A stretch of DNA of 63,787 nt, counting the filler, from Basidiobolus ranarum (lineage: Eukaryota): the NCBI GenBank assembly GCA_040143965.1. It is 32 parts of 32 records of this genome, joined end to end, with 100 filler letters (N's around TTAATTAATTAA, not from the genome) between each part and the next. Parts side by side here need not be neighbours in the genome. Positions count along the whole stretch, not along the records: positions 55,928 to 57,817 come from JASJQH010011020.1; 31 more parts are not named here. One strand, 5' to 3'. Positions 3,908 through 57,818 of the stretch are shown here, in pieces. Numbering within the stretch: position 1 is the stretch's first letter; the number at the start of each line of letters is the position of its first letter. Made by a program: the position numbers and the translations under genes. Under the pieces are notes generated by a model. That model worked only from the letters and a program-made list of their open reading frames with translations. It made no database searches and had not been told where the DNA came from.

Positions 3908-4007
3908 NNNNNNNNNNNNNNNNNNNNNNNNNNNNNNNNNNNNNNNNNNNNTTAATTAATTAANNNNNNNNNNNNNNNNNNNNNNNNNNNNNNNNNNNNN
4001 NNNNNNN

Positions 4008-6684: not shown

Positions 6685-7026
6685 TGTTGAAGTATTCGGA
6701 AGCCTGTTGGAAGTGGTTCGGAGAATTAGAGGAATTGGTGGTTTTCACACATAAATTTATTGAGTAGAAAGTTGACATTTACAATTTGTCAAGATGTGAA
6801 CAAACAGGCATGTAGAATGTGCTAAGGAAGGTCCCAGGAATATGTGTGTAAAATTTGGGGTCTCTAGCACAAGTTTGAAAAATCTATATATCAGGGAACC
6901 TCTAAGTTGTAAAAATATTCTAAGTTCCAGTTGAAAATAATGAATAATATCTTAGAGAATTATAGAATAACTCAATACTAAGCTATATATGACTATATAG
7001 GTGCTTAGGCAAAGCTAATTTCAACA
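6685..7026 (-). mobile_element. Copia 3' LTR (TG...CA) preceded by polypurine tract at 7027-7038
   Basis: Minus strand reads GTTGAAGGAGAG then TGTTGAAATTAGC, directly after the RNase H end. Confidence 0.9.
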
Positions 7027-14185: not shown

Positions 14186-15124
14186 ATTGGATTTGTTTGT
14201 GGATCCAGCATCTTCATTGCGGAAAATTTGCAACAGGTTGTGCAAGATATTTCTCATAATCTGTTAACTCTCTCGACACCACAGATATTATTCTTCACCG
14301 GGATCTTTTTGTCTCCACTGATTCTTATTCGTAACATCGCTCGGCTTTCTTTCGTTGCAGTCATTTCAAGTGTACTATTTCTCACTGGATTGGTAGCGCT
14401 GATTTATTTCGACGTGAAATCATTGTTTTACAGCTCACCTTCAGAAGGAATCAATTTTACGCCGGGGCCTAATATTACTTACTATTTCAATCCCGTTTCC
14501 TATTCGGTGTTTATCGGAACGGCAGTATATTCATTTGAGGGAATAGGGTTGATTATTCCTATATATGACGCTATGGCAAAACCTCAGTACTTCCCGCATG
14601 TTCTCACTGCAGTAATGGCGGTAGTAGCTTTAGTGTTCTCGTTAGTGGGAGGTCTGGGGTATTTTGCTTTTGGGTCCAAAGTTCAAACTGTGGCACTACT
14701 TAATCTTCCTAATGGGCCAGTCGTTCATACCATCCGTATGGCCTATACTATAGCAGCGGCACTCTCCAACGCGCTTACCATATTCCCGGCGGTTAGGATT
14801 ATTGAGAATGCAGTTTTCAAGCAGAAAACCGGAAAACTCAACCTTGCAATCAAATGGCAAAAGAATCTTCTAAGAGTGGGTATCGTTGTATTAACCATGT
14901 TTATAGCGATGTTTGGTGCCAACGATTTAGACAAATTCATTAGTCTAATAGGGTCTATATGTTGTACTCCCCTTTCGTTAATTTTTCCTTCCTTATTTCA
15001 CTATCGTGCGATCGCCACTACTAAGCGACAGAAAATGATTGATATAAGTTTGGCTTGCTTTGGTACATTTATTATGTTGTTTACTGTATGGACCACTGCT
15101 AGCCAATGGGGTACACCTACTTAG
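14186..15124 (+). CDS. Amino acid transporter (Aa_trans; AVT3/AVT4-like), 3' part
   Basis: SQ/IGF splice junction, FIGTAVYSFEGIGLIIPI, FISLIGSICCTPLSLIFPSLFHY; multiple TM segments. Confidence 0.92.
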   Translation: MGFVCGSSIFIAENLQQVVQDISHNLLTLSTPQILFFTGIFLSPLILIRNIARLSFVAVISSVLFLTGLVALIYFDVKSLFYSSPSEGINFTPGPNITYYFNPVSYSVFIGTAVYSFEGIGLIIPIYDAMAKPQYFPHVLTAVMAVVALVFSLVGGLGYFAFGSKVQTVALLNLPNGPVVHTIRMAYTIAAALSNALTIFPAVRIIENAVFKQKTGKLNLAIKWQKNLLRVGIVVLTMFIAMFGANDLDKFISLIGSICCTPLSLIFPSLFHYRAIATTKRQKMIDISLACFGTFIMLFTVWTTASQWGTPT

Positions 15125-24309: not shown

Positions 24310-25150
24310 TACAAGAACAATCTCGTGAACGTTAGCTTTGTCAATCTTAGAATCACGAAGAACCTTTTCAACATGATCCATAGTAGAACGGAATAAGTCT
24401 TGGCAAAGTTCCTCAATCTGACAAGGGCCAAGGAGGTGTATAAATCAACACCTTCGAATAGGGAGTCAATTTCGATGGAAGTTTGAGCGGCAGATCAGAG
24501 AGTTCTCTTGGCACGTTTGCAAGCAGTTCTGAGAGCACGGAGAGCACGAGGATTGCTAGATAAATCCTTCTTGTTCTTACGTTTAAGCTCTTGTGCAAAG
24601 TGGTTAACAAGACGGTTGTCGAAATCTTCTCCACCCAAGTGAGTATAATCAGCAGTGGCTTTGAATTAGAGAATACCATCCTCAACGGTCAAGAGAAAGA
24701 CATCAAAGGTGCCACCACCAAGGTCGAAGATGAGAACATTTTTCTCTCCACTGGATTTTTGATCAAGGCCATAAGCAATGGTAGCGGCGGTGGGCTCATT
24801 AATGATACGGAGAACATTCATACCAGCGATAGCACCAGCATCCTTAGTGGCTTGACTTTGAGAGTCATTATGGTAGGCTGGAATAGTAACAATAGCGTTC
24901 TTGACTTCAGTGCCGAGATAAACTTCGGCAGTATCTTTCATCTTTAACAAAATCATGGAGGAGGTTTCTTCAGGGGCGAAAGTTTTAGTTTCCCCGTTGT
25001 ACTCGACTTGGATTAAAGGTTTGGTATCTTTGTCGACAACCTTGAAAGACCAGTGCTTCATATCGGATTGGACTTCTGAATCGTTTGGCATCGAAGACAC
25101 TGTTGGTGGGGTTCATAGCGACTTGATTTTTGGCAGCATCACCAATGAGA
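24310..25150 (-). pseudogene. Cytosolic HSP70 pseudogene fragment (ATPase domain)
   Basis: [49 protein letters not shown]; premature stop at about 24666, deletion, frameshift, truncated both ends. Confidence 0.92.
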
Positions 25151-25912: not shown

Positions 25913-27247
25913 NNNNNNNNNNNNNNNNNNNNNNNNNNNNNNNNNNNNNNNNNNNNTTAATTAATTAANNNNNNNNNNNNNNNNNNNNNNNNNNNNNNNN
26001 NNNNNNNNNNNNGTAGGGATTATGAGCCGATGGAGATGAGGGAATCTGCGATCGTACGCTGAGATTGAAGCATAGTAAATGGAAAATGCTGCGGAGAAAG
26101 GGTCTCTAATCGAGATCTTTCATGATAACCGTCAGCTCGCGTTATGGACAGCTAGAGGCTAGAGGTGGTTAGGGCACTTAGAGAGACGATTTTTATTTTT
26201 CTGGTACGGAACAAATGATCACTAGGTAGCATCGGAAGGATGTGTCAGGTATAGGATGGGAGTTTATCTACTTCTAATATAAATGTTGAATTCCGGCTTC
26301 AAACATCCTTTTTCTCCGATAAAGTTGAATAAACTTATTCTTATTAACTTAGGAACACTTTGGTGTTTAAGTGGATGGCTTCATCATCGGTTACTTGGGG
26401 TTAGATTCATTAAATTTGAATACATATTCAAAACAACAATGAATCACTGTAATGAGTTTTAATGTCCATTTATTGAATCACTATAATGAGCATGCTAGCA
26501 TTCGTATTTTTATACTGCTATTCGAGATTACGAGTTTCAGCCAGTGTTAATATGTAAAGTTGGATTACTGTCTGCAGTTACTCTCTTTAAAGTATTGTTG
26601 GTTGGACTATGTTTGATGATAAAATGACAAGGGGAGACCAGTGTTGTTAATTATGTTTAGAAATGTAAATAAGTAACCAACATTGATTGTATAGTGTCGC
26701 AGTGGCTTCAGGAATGGTGAGAAAACTAAAATATGTAAGAATATGCTTACTCTACTACTTGGGTGGAGATGCTTAATTTTAGACTTTTCTGATGATAATG
26801 CTTCTTTCAAAGGGATACTGGATGGTTTAGATTTTACTTGATTCATATCCACGGATGTACGTTGCTTACTATATAAATAGAGGACTACTATATACTGGGA
26901 TTTATGGCTAGAAATAACAGACCTTTGAATTTAAGTTAAGCAACAAAATGAGAGTTTGTGGCTTCACTAAGTGCCCAAGAAACTTTGTAATCAATCAATA
27001 GTTGGTGGACTTGATGATTCTCATCAATGTATGGGTTTTCTTTTGATGACAATGTATTCAAATGCATCACTCTTCAAGATCTTTTTTAGGATTACACATA
27101 GAGAAGTACAGCTCTAAATGATTAATTCACAGTACTCGGACATACATTGTTAGCTTTACAACTTGGGTTAGGTTTAACTTCTTAATATACAATCAGTGAG
27201 GAGGGGTAAAGTTTTCATACTATTTTAAAAAAAATCACATCCTTCAG

Positions 27248-27595
27248 TGTTAAAGTATTTGGGAGCCTGTTGGAAATGGTTTGGAGATTTAGTGAAATTG
27301 GTGGTTTTCACTTGTTGATTTATTGAGTATTCAGTTGACATTTATAGTTTTGTCAATATGAAAACAAACTAATGTGTAGAATATGTTAAGGAAGGTCCCA
27401 GAAACATGTGTTCAATGTTTTGGGCTTCTAGCACAAGTTTGAAAAATCTATATATCTGAGAACTTCTTAGTTGGTAAGAATATTCTAAGTAAATGCCAAT
27501 TAAGAATAATTGATAATATGTTAGTGAATTATAAGATAACAAAGAACTAAGCTATATATTACTATATAGGTATTTAGGAAATGCTAATTTCAACA
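27248..27595 (-). mobile_element. Copia solo LTR with perfect 5-bp target-site duplication TTCAG
   Basis: TTCAG at 27243-27247 and 27596-27600 flank TG...CA. Confidence 0.92.
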
Positions 27596-27800
27596 TTCAG
27601 CTCTACAATGGTAATGCTGCCTACAAATTTGATACTACTGCAGTTTTCTAGGATGAAATTGATACCTATAAAGCAAATATTTGATTTACACTTTCAATAG
27701 TATCATGCCATTTCAAGGTATATAAACTTATGAGAATTAAACACAATGCTGAGGTGATAAATAGTGTACCTTTGGTTGAAGTATTTTGGGAGTTTGTTGG

Positions 27801-27910
27801 TATTGAAATTATTTAGGGAGAAATATTGGTCTGGCCAGGATTTGAACCTGGGACCTCCTTCACTCTAGCAAGGTGCTCTAACCACTGAGCTACCAGTCCT
27901 TGTATGCTAT
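27801..27910 (-). mobile_element. End of tRNA-bearing LTR-like element (copy 1)
   Basis: Near-identical to 57615-57724; interrupts a Copia LTR fragment at about 27775-27800. Confidence 0.75.
27827..27899 (-). ncRNA. tRNA-like sequence (73 nt, nominal anticodon AGA) inside a repeat element; probably not a functional tRNA
   Basis: GGACTGG TA GCTC AGTGGTTA GAGC A CCTTG CTAGAGT GAAGG AGGTC CCAGG TTCAAAT CCTGG CCAGACC A; A and B boxes intact, A3:A70 and G31:G39 mismatches. Confidence 0.85.
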
Positions 27911-33902: not shown

Positions 33903-34797
33903 NNNNNNNNNNNNNNNNNNNNNNNNNNNNNNNNNNNNNNNNNNNNTTAATTAATTAANNNNNNNNNNNNNNNNNNNNNNNNNNNNNNNNNNNNNNNNNN
34001 NNCTCTATATTTATACCATTTTCTCTATATTTGTCAAAAATTTTAACCGCTTCTCGAAAGGTTTATTCATGATTTTCATAGAAATTTATCATGAAATTCA
34101 TGCCACTCTCGATGACAATAATCCTTTTCCCGATGATATTTATACCCGGTTGACGATGTTTGATAACAGACAGAGCAAATTCTTATCGATAGCTGTCTCC
34201 GGCCTATCCCTCCTATACCCAATGCCTAATCAGTTATTGATCAAATAATGTTGAGTTGCATATATTATTTGAATATTACCACAATGATGGAGATTGCTAT
34301 TAGTGGAATACCACAGTGATTGCTGATTATTATCTAAATAATGGTAACGATTCTCAAGCTTTGCTTTTGAGACTATTTGTATGATGATTTTGGTTGGTGT
34401 AAATTAACTTCCCAATTTAATCAATTTAGCAGGGGCGCAAATAATGACTTGTGTCACAATCGTCAGTGAGTATGAAAAACCAGATAAAATATAGGTACTG
34501 AGGTTACAGGAAATGCGTAAACCAAGATTTAACCAAAAATAGACATGAGAAAAGCAGATGGCAGTCGGTTTAAGGATGAGTTGTGTAACAAGAATGGTTT
34601 CAAGGAAATATAAAACATATAATGTTCAAGTGGAGTAATACAACAAAACGATTCAGTAAATCCTTGCGAATGACAATAGAGACAATATGCTATGAAACTA
34701 TCATTGTGATATAAATACTTGTTGAGGAACTTCCTTTACTCACACTTCTAGTCAATTTGAGTAGCTTCATTTTCCAATTGAGAATATTCATCGCCAA

Positions 34798-35898
34798 ATG
34801 GTTGCAACAGGAGCTGATGCACACCTGCCAATAGCTCGCTCTTTGACAGTTGAGTATCGAACTCTTTCAGTTCGTCTTGAAGAAGCTCGTACACGAACGA
34901 GGGAGGTTCCGAGAGAAAAAGATCTTGAAGAAGAACTAGCGATAGACTATCACAAGTTAAACTTGCATGAATTGACTCTTCGCTTTAATACCTCACTTGA
35001 AAATGGCCTGGATGTGACAAACGCTCAAACTCGCCTGGCTAAGAACGGTAAAAATCAGATCTCTCCACCACCATCAAAATTACTAGCCAAGATCTTTGAC
35101 TATGGTTTCGGCGGCTTCTGCGGTCTTTTATGGTTCGCTGCTGTAATCTGTTTCCTGGCCTGGAAGCCCCTTGGTAATCCACCAGATCCTGTGAACTTGG
35201 GTCTAGGTATTCTACTCTTAATTGTAATTTTTTTACAAGCTGGATTCAACGCTTATCAGGATTGGAGTTCATCCAAGGTGATGAATTCTATCAATGGTAT
35301 GTTGCCAGCAAATGCCTTGGTCAATCGTGGTGGTCAAAAGGTCAGAATCCCGGTGAGTGACTTGGTTGTAGGAGACGTAGTGTACTTGTCATATGGTAAC
35401 AAAGTACCAGCTGATGCACGTGTGATTAGTTGCTCAGATCTCAAATTCGATAAATCTGTACTTACTGGTGAAAGTGACCCAATCACTGCCACAGTCGACA
35501 TGACTGACGAGAATTATCTTGAGTCCAAGAATGTTGCACTTATGGGTACCTTGATTACAAACGGTGAAGGTGTTGGTGTTGTCGTTTCTACTGGTGACAG
35601 AACAGTCATGGGAAAGATCGCCAAGCTATCTAGTAATGCCGGTACCTCTAGGACTTTGTTGCAAATTGAAATCAGTCGATTTGTAAAAATTATCGCTACT
35701 TTATCTATTTCCACCGCAGCTTTTGTGATGATTCTCTGGGCCGCTTGGTTACGTACTGCATATCCTGGTTTCTTGAACCTCTCCACCGCCTTGGTAAATG
35801 CCATTGCAGTTCTTGTTGCTTTCGTTCCCGAAGGTCTTCCAGTGGCTGTCACTTTAACCCTTACTCTGATCGCTCGTCGTATGCAACAACAGAAGGTA
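34798..35898 (+). CDS. P-type cation ATPase of Na+/K+ (type IIC / fungal ACU-like) class, 5' part
   Basis: VEYRTLS, KNGKNQISPPP, GNKVPAD, LTGESDP, VAFVPEGLPVAVTLTL; uninterrupted ORF. Confidence 0.9.
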
Positions 35899-39209: not shown

Positions 39210-39889
39210 ATGGTCAACGTTCGCATCTTCGCCTTAGGATCTCTTCTTGCTATCGTTTTAGCTGTGCCAATCACTGAGGGCCAGAGTGTTGACGTTTCTA
39301 ACCGCTATATCGTCAAGATCAAAGAAGGAGCTGACTCTAACAAAGGTAAAAGTGTGTTTTTATTTCGACAGATGTATGAGACACAGTGTTAACATGTACA
39401 TCTTCTGATCTTAGTCGACCAATTCTTAAAGACAAAACTTGACCAATATAACCGTGGCCGTAGTGGTAACAACTCCCTTAAAAATGAGCTAAAGAACAAG
39501 TTCGCCTTGGAGAACTTCAATGCTTATGCTGGTACACTCAGCCAAGCCCTTGTCAGTGAACTCAAGACCAATGGTGATGTCGAGTATGTTGAGGCTGAGC
39601 AAGTGTTCACCGTCTCTGGAGTTCAAAACAGCCCACCAAGCTGGGGTCTCCCTAGAGTCTCTCAGCGTGCATTGAATGCCAATGCGCCATACAACTATCC
39701 CGACTCAGCTGGTGAAGGAGTTGATGTGTACATCATCGACACCGGAATCAATGTCAAGCACTCTGATTTTGGAGGCAGAGCCACTCTTCCTGTCAGTTTC
39801 ATCAGTGGTGAGGCCACCGAGGATCTCAATGGTCACGGAACTCACGTCTCTGGAACAGTTGGAGGGGCCAGCTATGGTGTAGCCAAGAA
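39210..39889 (+). CDS. Secreted subtilisin S8A with I9 prodomain, 5' part (intron 39346-39414)
   Basis: Signal peptide, RYIVKIK, PSWGLPRVSQR, VYIIDTGI (Asp), NGHGTHVSGT (His). Confidence 0.95.
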
Positions 39890-45970: not shown

Positions 45971-46346
45971 TCCTCGTGGCTTCGATGACAAGTCAGCTGG
46001 CTATGCCACGATTGCTTTGATCTACTTGTTTGTTGCATTCTTCGCCTGTACCTGGGGACCTATTGGTTGGATTTACCCATCAGAAATTTACTCTACTCGT
46101 GTCCGTGCCAAGTGCATGAGTATTACCACTGCTTCTAACTGGGCCTTCAACTTCATCATTGCTCTTGTCGTTCCACCTTTGATCAACTCCATTAGCTGGG
46201 GATTGTATATCATCTTTGGAGCATGCGGTGTCCTTATGTTCATCTTTGTGTACTTTTTTGTACCTGAGACTAAAGGAAAGAGTTTGGAACAAATTGACCA
46301 CATGTTTGGAGGTCGTAGTAATATTGAAGAGAAGACCAAAGTTTAG
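45971..46346 (+). CDS. MFS sugar porter (hexose transporter) C-terminal part
   Basis: FACTWGPIGWIYPSEIY..RVRAK, SNWAFNF, FFVPETKGKSLEQID. Confidence 0.95.
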
Positions 46347-53937: not shown

Positions 53938-54327
53938 CTCTATTAATTAGTGATTTAATGTCTTCTCCTGGCTTCATCTTTAAGTTAAAGAATTGTCTTC
54001 TTAGAAACATCTTGTTGGCAGCAGAACTAGTCTGATAGGTGTCTTCAAATGCTTTCCATATCTTCTTGGCAGTTTTACTCTTGAACATAGAGTTAGCAAC
54101 TTGTCTTTGACATTCAGTTATATGGTGTTAAAGGCACTTTGTTCTTTTTTAACCTGAAGTAAAACTTTGATTTCAGATAGTTTTAAATTGTTTTCTTCTC
54201 CTACAACAGTGTCCCAAAGTCCTTTTTCTTGCAACAGCATTTTCATTTTTAATTTCCAAACTTGATAATTGGTTCCATCCAATTTTGCAGAATAGGGTAA
54301 AGTTCCATAAAATTGAGAAGTAGACAT
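53938..54327 (-). mobile_element. Copia gag N-terminus, degenerate
   Basis: KLDGTNYQVWKLKMKMLLQEKGLW; TAKKIWKAFEDTYQTSSAANKMFLRRQFFNLKM. Confidence 0.9.
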
Positions 54328-54349: not shown

Positions 54350-54358
54350 CTCATAACC
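54350..54358 (-). promoter_or_regulatory. Primer-binding site GGTTATGAG (tRNA-Met anticodon-arm type)
   Basis: Immediately follows the 5' LTR and precedes gag. Confidence 0.75.
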
Positions 54359-54726
54359 AGTTAAAGTATTGGGGAGCCTGTTGGAAGTGGATTGGAGAAT
54401 TAGGAAAATTAGTGGCTTTTGTGAGAGTTCTCTGACAGGTTTGCATTCCAGAATGGTGGATTGAATCCAAATCAAGTCAATTTTGTTTCTTAGGGAAAGT
54501 AACATGTAGAATGTGTTTAGGAAGGTTCCAGGAGCATGTGTGCAAAGTTTGGGGCTTTTAGCACAAGTTTGAACAATCTACATATCTGAAAATGTCTGAG
54601 TTAGTAAATGTATTTTGAGTAAGTTCCTATTTGAAAATAATGGATGACATCTTAGTGAATCATAATGTAACTAAGAACTAAGCTTTATATGAATACATAG
54701 GTGTTTAGGCAATGCTAACATCAACA
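54359..54726 (-). mobile_element. Copia 5' LTR
   Basis: Homologous to 6685-7026; adjacent to PBS and gag. Confidence 0.85.
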
Positions 54727-55927: not shown

Positions 55928-57153
55928 ATCACTTGCTCTGATGATGAGTGGTTTAACATTTTGGAAACTATTTGGATTCTTGCCAAAATCACCTTGATTT
56001 GAGCTCATTGTGGAAAACCAAAAACCAGGTGTTACTTTGAAGATTCTTGACTTATTTCATATGGCTTATCCTGGGTTTTTGCAAGCAAATGGCAGTTGGG
56101 CTAGTAAAGGCCTATTCATGAAACATCTCAAAAATGTATGCAATTATGGACTTGGAAAAGAAAGAAAAGCAGCCAAAGAAGTGCTGAAGGAGCAGGAAGT
56201 TAGCAAACCCAAGGGAAAGGCACAGGAGCCAGGGAGTGTAGGCTCTACTGTCCCACTTACCAGATTTTTCACACCATTACAAAGATCTGCAACTCCAGAG
56301 TCAGATATACTGTCAAATAAGCTTAATTTCACCAAGGAACCAGGTACACCAGTTGGAAGAGTGCTAAATTTGGAAGTTTATCCTACACCTGGCATCTCTC
56401 AACAAGCCAAAACACCAGCAAATAAAACACATGGCTCTCCAACCCCAACTGGTACTTTTCAAAGTGTTGAAATTAGCCCCAAAGTTAAAGACAAGTAAAA
56501 AGTCACACAAACACCTCAAAGCACCCTCAGTAGTGTCACACTACAAGGACTTACAAAAATAGTCAAAGTGCTTGAGGAGTATTTTGAAATGTATGAAGGG
56601 AAAAACACAGTGCAAATATGCTGGAAGTGGCTTCAGAAGAAGTACTTTCAACTTGGCATTCAGTCTGGTGTTGACCATGCAGATATCTGGGAAGAACTTA
56701 ATACAGAGTGGCACAATATTGCAGGGTATCTGCCAGATAGCTGGAAAAATGTTGATTCAGCAACATTGATACAATGGTGAGCTTTGATGGAGATATTGAT
56801 ACAAACTTGTGTTGGGTATGAGCTAAACCTTGGGTATGAAGAACTGTATAAGAATATTCAGGATAATATATCAAAGAGACTAGGGATTTCAAAGGTGACA
56901 ATTAGTGTTCAAGTGGTAATTGTGTAAAATTTGAGTTATATTTGCACATGTGTTGATCCATAATTCTCTGAGATTGTAGCCAATCATGCGCAACTATTTT
57001 GCAAGATCTTGAAATTTCACTCCTTTAAAAGAAAAATTGATTAACATCAAATCTAACTTGATGATTTTTTGACAGTAAGTAAATGGTGAATCCTAAATGG
57101 ATTAAAATTGTGATGGCTTTCCTACAATAATAATCCTCAAATTTCTGTTAGGA
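55928..57153 (+). mobile_element. CCCTAAC element with best-preserved ORF remnant and right terminus
   Basis: ORFs 56010-56498 and 56568-56780 collinear with 700-1590; ends AAATTTCTGTTAGGA. Confidence 0.88.
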
Positions 57154-57614
57154 TATAGTAACCAATGACTTGAAGACTTTGAAGAAAACCAAATCCAGCT
57201 TATCTGCCAAATATAAATTGACTGATCTTGGTAAACTGACATACTATCTTGGAATCCAAATAAAGATAGATAGAACTACCAAAACAATAACTTTAAACCA
57301 GTCTAAGTGTATGCTAGATATACTAAAGAATTTAAAATGGAAGAATGCAATTCTGTGTCTATTTCAATGAAGACAAACCTTTACTTGACCAAAAATGGCA
57401 CAAATTGGACATTCTTTGACTCAAATGCCAGCCAGAAATTTCCTTATTGACCTATGATTGGTAGTTTGATATATATCTTGGTTGGAACATGGCCAGATAT
57501 TGCATATTCTGTGGGAGTTATACGCCAATATCTTTAAAATTTGGATCTGATCAAATCATAGCAGTTAAGTGGATTTTCAGCAACTTGAAATGTACTGTAG
57601 ATCTATGCTTATAA
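57154..57614 (+). mobile_element. Copia reverse transcriptase fragment
   Basis: KYKLTDLGKLTYYLGIQI, LNQSK, MIGSLIYILVGTWPDIAYSV. Confidence 0.9.
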
Positions 57615-57818
57615 TGTTGAAATTATTTGGTGAGAAATATTGGTCTGGCCAGGATTTGAACCTGGGGCCTCCTTCACTCTAGCAAGGTGCTCTAACCACT
57701 GAGCTGCCAGTCCTTGTATGCTATGCCTATATTGCTAGGGAACCTTAACCTAGTCTGTCAATGTATGGTACTTGGGCATTTCAGTTATACAAGCAACTGA
57801 TTGGCCTTAGACTTTGTN
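57615..57818 (-). mobile_element. tRNA-bearing LTR-like element (copy 2) inserted in Copia RT
   Basis: Terminus TGTTGAAATTA at 57615 abruptly interrupts RT homology; runs to contig end. Confidence 0.78.
57641..57713 (-). ncRNA. tRNA-like sequence (copy 2)
   Basis: Differs from 27827-27899 at two positions; same cloverleaf spacing and B box GGTTCAAATCC. Confidence 0.85.

Follow-up and report, generated by a model that had tools for sequence, protein, structure and literature searches.

A mobile repeat with a tRNA-derived module and a Copia-like terminus in Basidiobolus, possibly of Helenus type

Introduction

In retroposons of the SINE2 type, the tRNA-derived head comes first, at the 5′ end; next comes a body, and last an A-rich, simple-repeat or LINE-derived tail. 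tRNA-like sequence is also found in Helenus (TRIMp3), a group of TRIMs that carry it within the LTR (Kojima 2024, PMC10886601). As described in the parts of that study drawn on here, Helenus elements possess two LTRs, TG...CA termini, a PBS, a PPT and a TSD, and are non-coding, with a total length of 311-1263 bp (PMC10886601). Their tRNA-like parts are mostly non-functional, retain conserved box A (TRGCY...YGG) and box B (GGTTC) motifs and are often called as Thr-AGT or Ser-AGA, with class-I 'Ser-AGA' among the rust Helenus; in rust genomes, Helenus accounts for hundreds of false tRNA-Thr and tRNA-Ser calls (same parts of PMC10886601). Fungal Helenus elements show 5-bp TSDs, an apparent dependence on Copia, and PBSs directed mostly against the anticodon loop of iMet. 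Priming from this loop is cited in those passages for Ty5 and Drosophila copia, and is given likewise for rust Copia and Helenus (PMC10886601). Repbase LTR entries and relatives of these were the starting point of the underlying screen. Within the same portions of the text, fungal Helenus are reported only from Pucciniales and a few Agaricomycetes, and no LTR similarity between Helenus and Copia was found, the rust Helenus included (PMC10886601).

A second group of TRIMs, Cassandra, bears 5S sequence and occurs in plants, and its autonomous partner is given as unknown in the sections of the same study used here (Kojima 2024, PMC10886601). The repeat described below resembles Cassandra in that the Pol III promoter of a small-RNA gene would lie inside the LTR of a non-autonomous element. 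It differs from it in kind of module, a tRNA here as opposed to the 5S rRNA module of Cassandra, and in host, Cassandra being confined to plants in that account.

Sequence analysed

The window, that is, the whole stretch of DNA that was analysed, is 63,787 bases long and consists of 32 separate contigs of 1890-1904 bp in descending order of length, joined by N44-TTAATTAATTAA-N44 linkers (1905-2004, 3908-4007 and so on). Because the window is an artificial chain of contigs, findings that lean on neighbourhood across a linker are invalid. A first-pass annotation of this DNA had referred to a 'local' or 'resident' Copia; with 32 independent contigs joined by linkers, these words can mean only that the sequences belong to the same assembly. 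Copy A had also been given as running to 57818, which is in fact the first N of a linker, contig 29 ending at 57817.

Two copies of a tRNA-bearing repeat

The repeat is present as copy A in contig 29 and copy B in contig 14, with the following parts:

57615..57640, minus strand: tail of copy A, 26 nt, element terminus, ending ...TTTCAACA on the tRNA strand
57641..57713, minus strand: pseudo-tRNA of copy A (ARAGORN; Rfam RF00005, 52.4 bits; fold)
57714..57817, minus strand: upstream part of copy A, 104 nt, the first 11 nt common to copy B; cut by the contig end
27801..27826, minus strand: tail of copy B, 26 nt, ending ...TTTCAATA, with 3 differences from copy A
27827..27899, minus strand: pseudo-tRNA of copy B (ARAGORN; Rfam RF00005, 58.6 bits)
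27900..27910, minus strand: leader of copy B, 11 nt, identical to copy A; the contig ends here

The block common to both copies (57615-57724 in copy A, 27801-27910 in copy B) spans 110 nt, at 105 of which the two are identical, and blastn aligns them at 96.3% over 108 nt. On the tRNA strand, the block reads as an 11-nt leader, the 73-nt pseudo-tRNA and the 26-nt tail. The first-pass annotation had proposed that the copies share sequence beyond the tRNA on both sides and that the repeat is mobile. Both proposals are borne out, the former by the 11 nt upstream together with the 26-nt tail, the latter by two copies with differing flanks and the same sharp terminus. The tail had been said to end in TAATTTCAACA, which is correct for the copy at 57615; the copy at 27801 reads TAATTTCAATA instead. 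No third copy, whole or partial, is present in the window.

Both copies are cut off by contig ends, copy B 11 nt and copy A 104 nt upstream of the tRNA. Consequently, one terminus per copy lies within the contigs, and the visible element amounts to at least 203 nt in copy A. The position of both copies at contig ends is expected, since repeats break short-read assemblies. A chimeric assembly join was set aside on the reasoning that the shared 11-mer is far below any usual assembly k-mer. The visible 203 nt contain no inverted or direct repeats of note, and the remaining 93 nt of the upstream part of copy A showed no match to Copia pol or to other repeats in the window.

Exact patterns taken from the element gave 0 matches in the metagenome, genome and viral contig collections scanned. 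A 41-aa frame across the element served as a protein-search query aimed at spurious ORFs over further copies. This frame returned no candidate among proteins of near length and 3 candidates among longer proteins, 0 of them at E<=1. Against a representative protein library it gave 12 matches at E<=0.001, all of them tRNA-like translations of 38-57% identity, with no close copy.

Four of the five differences between the copies are transitions in the same direction, with G in copy A and A in copy B on the plus strand (57616, 57629, 57667 and 57706 against 27802, 27815, 27853 and 27892). The shared direction may reflect a deamination-type bias, at what are few sites (n=4).

The tRNA-derived module

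ARAGORN predicts one tRNA-like gene of 73 nt per copy (27827-27899 and 57641-57713, minus strand), both with anticodon AGA, and the RF00005 scores of 58.6 bits (copy B) and 52.4 bits (copy A) exceed the gathering score, which is 29. The A and B boxes are both good, box A reading CAGCTCAGTGG in copy A and TAGCTCAGTGG in copy B, and box B reading GGTTCAAATCC in both. The 73-nt cloverleaf with A and B boxes, previously recognised from the sequence alone, is thus confirmed by ARAGORN as well as by Rfam.

Serine tRNAs are class II, with a long variable arm. The module has the class I shape with a 5-nt variable loop, and carries the stem mismatches A3.A70 and G31.G39 in both copies; the two substitutions that separate the copies within it fall at the unpaired positions 8 and 47. 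A functional tRNA-Ser gene was rejected on account of the 73-nt length, the missing long variable arm and the A3.A70 and G31.G39 mismatches common to both copies. The tRNA is a pseudogene, because the AGA (serine) anticodon occurs without a long arm and in combination with two mismatched stem pairs.

No TTTT occurs on the tRNA strand of either copy (203 nt known; T frequency 0.32), and past the terminus the first T4 on this strand comes after 76 nt in contig 29 and after 355 nt in contig 14. This agrees with the first-pass observation that no T4+ terminator follows the tRNA within the element.

Terminus and insertion sites

Directly beside the two termini lie the following features:

57241..57614, plus strand: decayed Copia pol fragment, end of RT towards RNase H (blastn to contig 4, 80.6% over 377 nt; translations; junction alignment)
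27774..27800, minus strand: fragment similar to the 3′-terminal 27 nt of the Copia LTR, directly adjoining the copy B terminus in tRNA orientation

Contigs 4 and 10 contain uninterrupted Copia pol homologues, and the homology of contig 29 stops exactly at (T)GTTGAAATTA. Judged from this alignment, copy A interrupts or truncates the Copia pol fragment at 57241..57614. Copy B displays the same terminus, give or take one nucleotide, and adjoins different DNA than copy A. On the strength of the two junction sequences, we take the end of the tail to be a true transposition boundary of a mobile element.

When compared with the 3′ end of the Copia LTR, the 27 nt at 27774-27800 reach a score of 17, and 0 of 40,000 random 27-mers from LTR-free contigs scored above 11, but nhmmer gave this match an E-value of only 1.8. 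This fragment is either the insertion target or a part of the element. The earlier claim that both copies interrupt Copia sequence accordingly holds for contig 29, where the pol homology breaks; in contig 14, the copy adjoins only the 27-nt fragment of an LTR 3′ end. The full Copia LTR present in contig 14 is a separate solo LTR, about 200 bp from copy B.

In copy A, the terminus is TG on one strand and ...CA on that of the tRNA; the corresponding ends in copy B are TA and ..TA. The 5 nt beside the terminus on the tRNA strand, which are the 5-mers expected to be duplicated, are TTATA (copy A) and CCAAC (copy B). No PBS is found after the visible termini, contig 29 reading TTATAAGC and contig 14 reading CCAACAAAC at this point. 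As LTRs, both copies must therefore be 3′ or solo LTRs.

Like SINE2 retroposons, the element is non-coding and interspersed, and its tRNA-derived module contains A and B boxes. It could be a SINE-like retroposon of ~110 nt, composed of a Pol III leader, a tRNA body and the 26-nt tail and copied by a LINE or other RT, with the further 93 nt of contig 29 unrelated to it. A Pol III 5′ leader is about 11 nt long, which is the length of the shared leader, and contig 14 stops exactly at the leader start, as an assembler would where copies diverge. However, the tail ends ...AATAATTTCAACA directly against Copia sequence, with no A-rich, simple-repeat or LINE-like tail. The first-pass annotation had named a poly-A or simple-repeat end as the mark of a SINE; neither is present, and there is no tandem repeat at the 26-nt tail. 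Moreover, contig 29 does not resume Copia pol beyond the 110-nt block, which a simple 110-nt insertion would require, and the Copia-LTR-like end is left unexplained. We consider a SINE-like origin improbable. The layout also appears unlike that of SINE2, as only 26 nt separate the tRNA from the 3′ terminus and at least 104 nt precede it in copy A, copy B being cut off after 11 nt. This placement, with upstream sequence that does not resume Copia pol, fits a position of the tRNA inside an LTR.

The junctions bear likewise on a DNA transposon, be it a MITE or of Helitron type, that has captured a tRNA pseudogene and whose one inverted-repeat end is the terminus seen here. With one terminus visible, there is room for an inverted repeat at the far end. 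Still, the two junctions have no superfamily end motif and no TA, TTA or TTAA target in common, the 203 nt contain no inverted repeat, and the end looks LTR-like. A DNA transposon is in our view very unlikely.

Similarity to Copia LTR ends

Among the Copia LTRs of the window are the following:

6685..7026, minus strand: reference Copia 3′ LTR in contig 4, 5′-TGTTGAAATTAGC...CTTCAACA-3′, preceded by the purine tract GTTGAAGGAGAG
54350..54726, minus strand: Copia 5′ LTR in contig 28, followed by the PBS (T)GGTTATGAG and the gag start at 54327
27248-27595, minus strand: solo Copia LTR, with a perfect 5-bp CTGAA duplication around it (27243-27600)

The LTRs of this family are ~345 bp long with TG...CA ends (5′-TGTTGAAATTAGC...CCCAAATACTTTAACA-3′), and the 5′ LTR of contig 28 is followed by TGGTTATGAG and the start of gag. 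The gag start itself (ATG at 54327-54325, MSTSQFYGTLPYSAKLDGTNYQVWK...) runs into a stop after ~51 codons. The single occurrence of GGTTATGAG in the window is the one behind the Copia 5′ LTR, and this sequence presumably complements the anticodon loop of the initiator tRNA (iMet), the priming mode of Ty5 and copia. With its TG...CA LTRs, 5-bp TSD and PBS TGGTTATGAG, the family resembles Ty5/copia-type elements, which are unlike the tRNA-bearing repeat in being autonomous and Pol II-driven, with no tRNA-like sequence in the LTR. The Copia family of 6685..7026 is the putative autonomous partner of the repeat. Two other relations between them were considered and rejected. The tRNA of the element is neither the Copia primer nor a read-through copy of it: the Copia PBS (TGGTTATGAG) is not complementary to this tRNA, and neither is anything else in the window.

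The first-pass annotation had equated TGTTGAAATTA, at 57615-57625, with the first 11 nt of the Copia LTR at 7026-7016. The identity is real and extends to the solo LTR at 27595-27585. In total, TGTTGAAATTA has 6 exact matches in the window against 0.15 expected. Away from LTR ends, two matches lie in an unrelated repeat (1153 and 56465) and one in unique DNA (38998); the latter was rejected as an LTR start, the surrounding DNA being unique and not LTR-like.

Scoring the terminal 20 nt of the element against the reverse complement of the Copia LTR 3′ end, only 5 of 40,000 random 20-mers drawn from LTR-free contigs score as well for copy A, and 34 of 40,000 for copy B. For the comparison with the Copia LTR 5′ start, the corresponding numbers are 181 of 20,000 (copy A) and 811 of 20,000 (copy B). 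The reported match to Copia is therefore correct in that the terminus resembles LTR ends, but it is the 3′ end, in tRNA sense, that fits better than the 5′ start originally named. The better 3′-end match implies that the tRNA strand is LTR-sense. Beyond the last ~20 nt, likeness to the Copia LTR is no longer detectable, as local alignments were not above shuffles and nhmmer gave no significant match; the upstream 104 nt of copy A scored 13 against the Copia LTR, with a null mean of 14.

These numbers also address the possibility that the repeat is not a transposon, and that dispersed tRNA pseudogenes or a segmental duplication happen to lie beside Copia debris, the end likeness being chance in AT-rich DNA. 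There are only two copies, TGTTGAAATTA occurs at three sites unrelated to LTR ends, and nhmmer detects no significant LTR likeness, all of which would suit such an explanation. Conversely, two independent junctions fall at the same nucleotide (+/- one), the empirical p for the end likeness is ~1e-4 to 1e-3, and the tRNA cannot be a working tRNA-Ser. We regard a non-transposon origin as highly improbable.

Comparison with Helenus

An LTR fits these observations best, because a TG/CA, Copia-U5-like terminus is combined with an internal Pol III promoter and the lack of a T4 run. More specifically, the copies would be 3′ LTR portions (solo or 3′ LTRs) of a Copia-dependent, non-autonomous element of Helenus/TRIMp3 type in Basidiobolus or a near relative, an assignment that we make tentatively and rate at just short of an even chance.

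Several features are shared with Helenus. The element has a pseudo-tRNA with box A of the form TRGCY...YGG and a GGTTC box B, an LTR-like end and a fungal host. The prediction of 'Ser-AGA' in a class-I shape has its counterpart among the rust Helenus, as presented in the parts of the survey cited above (PMC10886601). Similarly, the genome holds a Copia with 5-bp TSDs and a putative PBS for the iMet anticodon loop, as those parts describe for the likely partners of fungal Helenus. Conversely, Helenus is known from a full two-LTR structure, and is likened here by description only. What is seen in the window is a mobile repeat of which one defined terminus and at least 203 nt are visible, with pseudo-tRNA promoter boxes, no T4, a Copia-like end and an insertion into Copia sequence that is dead. 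Its host is a Basidiobolus-like fungus (Zoopagomycota), as opposed to the Pucciniales and Agaricomycetes named in the portions of Kojima 2024 consulted here. Finally, the end of the element resembles the Copia LTR end, a likeness between Helenus and Copia of which none was found in the same portions of that work.

Some observations count against an assignment to Helenus. Neither copy shows a second terminus, a paired LTR, an internal domain, a PBS, a PPT or a TSD, both contigs stopping within the element. Only two copies are present, the second covering just 110 nt; the likeness to the Copia LTR is confined to about 20 nt, and the copy B terminus reads TA/..TA. In addition, the end of contig 14, 11 nt upstream of the tRNA, could mark the end of a much shorter repeat.

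For an element of Helenus type, propagation could proceed as follows. A decayed class-I tRNA gene would sit near the 3′ end of the LTR, and its A and B boxes would recruit TFIIIC, TFIIIB and RNA polymerase III. Transcription would start near the tRNA 5′ end and, with no T4 in the known 203 nt, could read through the LTR into the internal domain. The element RNA would then be packaged and reverse-transcribed by the Copia machinery, the Copia of this genome probably priming from the anticodon loop of the initiator tRNA (PBS TGGTTATGAG). The TG...CA ends would be recognised by the Copia integrase, with the last ~20 nt mimicking the Copia U5 end. That the Copia integrase mobilises the element is deduced solely from the ~20 nt over which the ends are alike. 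We likewise infer that the element is an LTR element of miniature size, that Pol III transcribes it and that it depends on Copia.

The same terminus evidence would serve equally if the copies were LTRs of some larger element (Copia or Gypsy if autonomous, or else a long derivative that is non-autonomous) in which the tRNA insert is a passenger and transcription is driven by Pol II from the LTR. The element is at least 203 nt long with no end in sight, and 'not a few' Repbase LTRs are said to hold tRNA-like pieces, only some of these belonging to TRIMs (Kojima 2024, PMC10886601, in the parts used here). Nevertheless, A and B boxes that are intact and a tRNA strand entirely free of T4 are consistent with selection for Pol III read-through, and no coding sequence in the window is linked to the tRNA-bearing LTR. 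A larger element with a passenger tRNA appears unlikely.

Novelty and implications

The first-pass annotation had suggested that the element may represent a new lineage. This was overstated, as tRNA-bearing fungal TRIMs that look Copia-dependent have already been described as Helenus, according to the passages cited above (PMC10886601). In full-text literature searches, no listed paper dealt with Helenus, TRIMp3 or SINEs of Basidiobolus, papers on transposable elements being judged by title and abstract, and for TRIMp3 Kojima 2024 alone was relevant. What would be new is the host lineage; the kind of element is already known, and for now the finding amounts to an incomplete sighting of it. The full claim, namely a Helenus/TRIMp3 element with a Pol III promoter in Zoopagomycota (Basidiobolus), the first outside Dikarya, with a U5 end that copies a co-resident Copia primed from the iMet anticodon loop, is possible, although we hold it with somewhat more doubt than confidence.

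If correct, tRNA-bearing LTR elements would extend to an early-diverging fungal lineage, and Helenus-type elements would either be ancient in fungi or have arisen repeatedly via a tRNA-SINE landing in an LTR. The mimicry of the LTR end would further allow the autonomous Copia partner to be named, pairing it with a non-autonomous element. There would also be a practical consequence for annotation, as Helenus-like elements inflate tRNA gene counts, and tRNA predictions in Basidiobolus would need the same filter as those in rusts.

Other features of the window

A second abundant repeat occupies 55928-57156 together with matching parts of contigs 1, 5, 11, 17, 23 and 28, and contains TGTTGAAATTAGC at 1153 and 56465. 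It has a sharp boundary near 57152-57157 (contig 29, ~1225-1230), common to contig 29 and six other contigs, which is probably where another retroelement family, nested beside the Copia fragment, ends.

Of the 32 contigs, 31 have a GC content of 33-42%, and the remaining one of 23%. The latter, contig 27 (51947-53837), is rich in AT-rich tandem repeats with periods of 49, 57-59, 79-90 and 117 nt, and may represent satellite DNA or an organellar spacer. Long fragments of host genes, all intron-free, are found at 14186-15124, 24666-25112, 34765-35898, 39393-39887 and 45972-46346; they comprise an amino-acid transporter, an HSP70, a P-type ATPase, a subtilase with an I9 propeptide and a sugar transporter. 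As a single marker, the P-type ATPase puts the assembly within or close to Basidiobolus, its fragment showing 89% identity to a Basidiobolus meristosporus protein and 83% to a B. ranarum protein.
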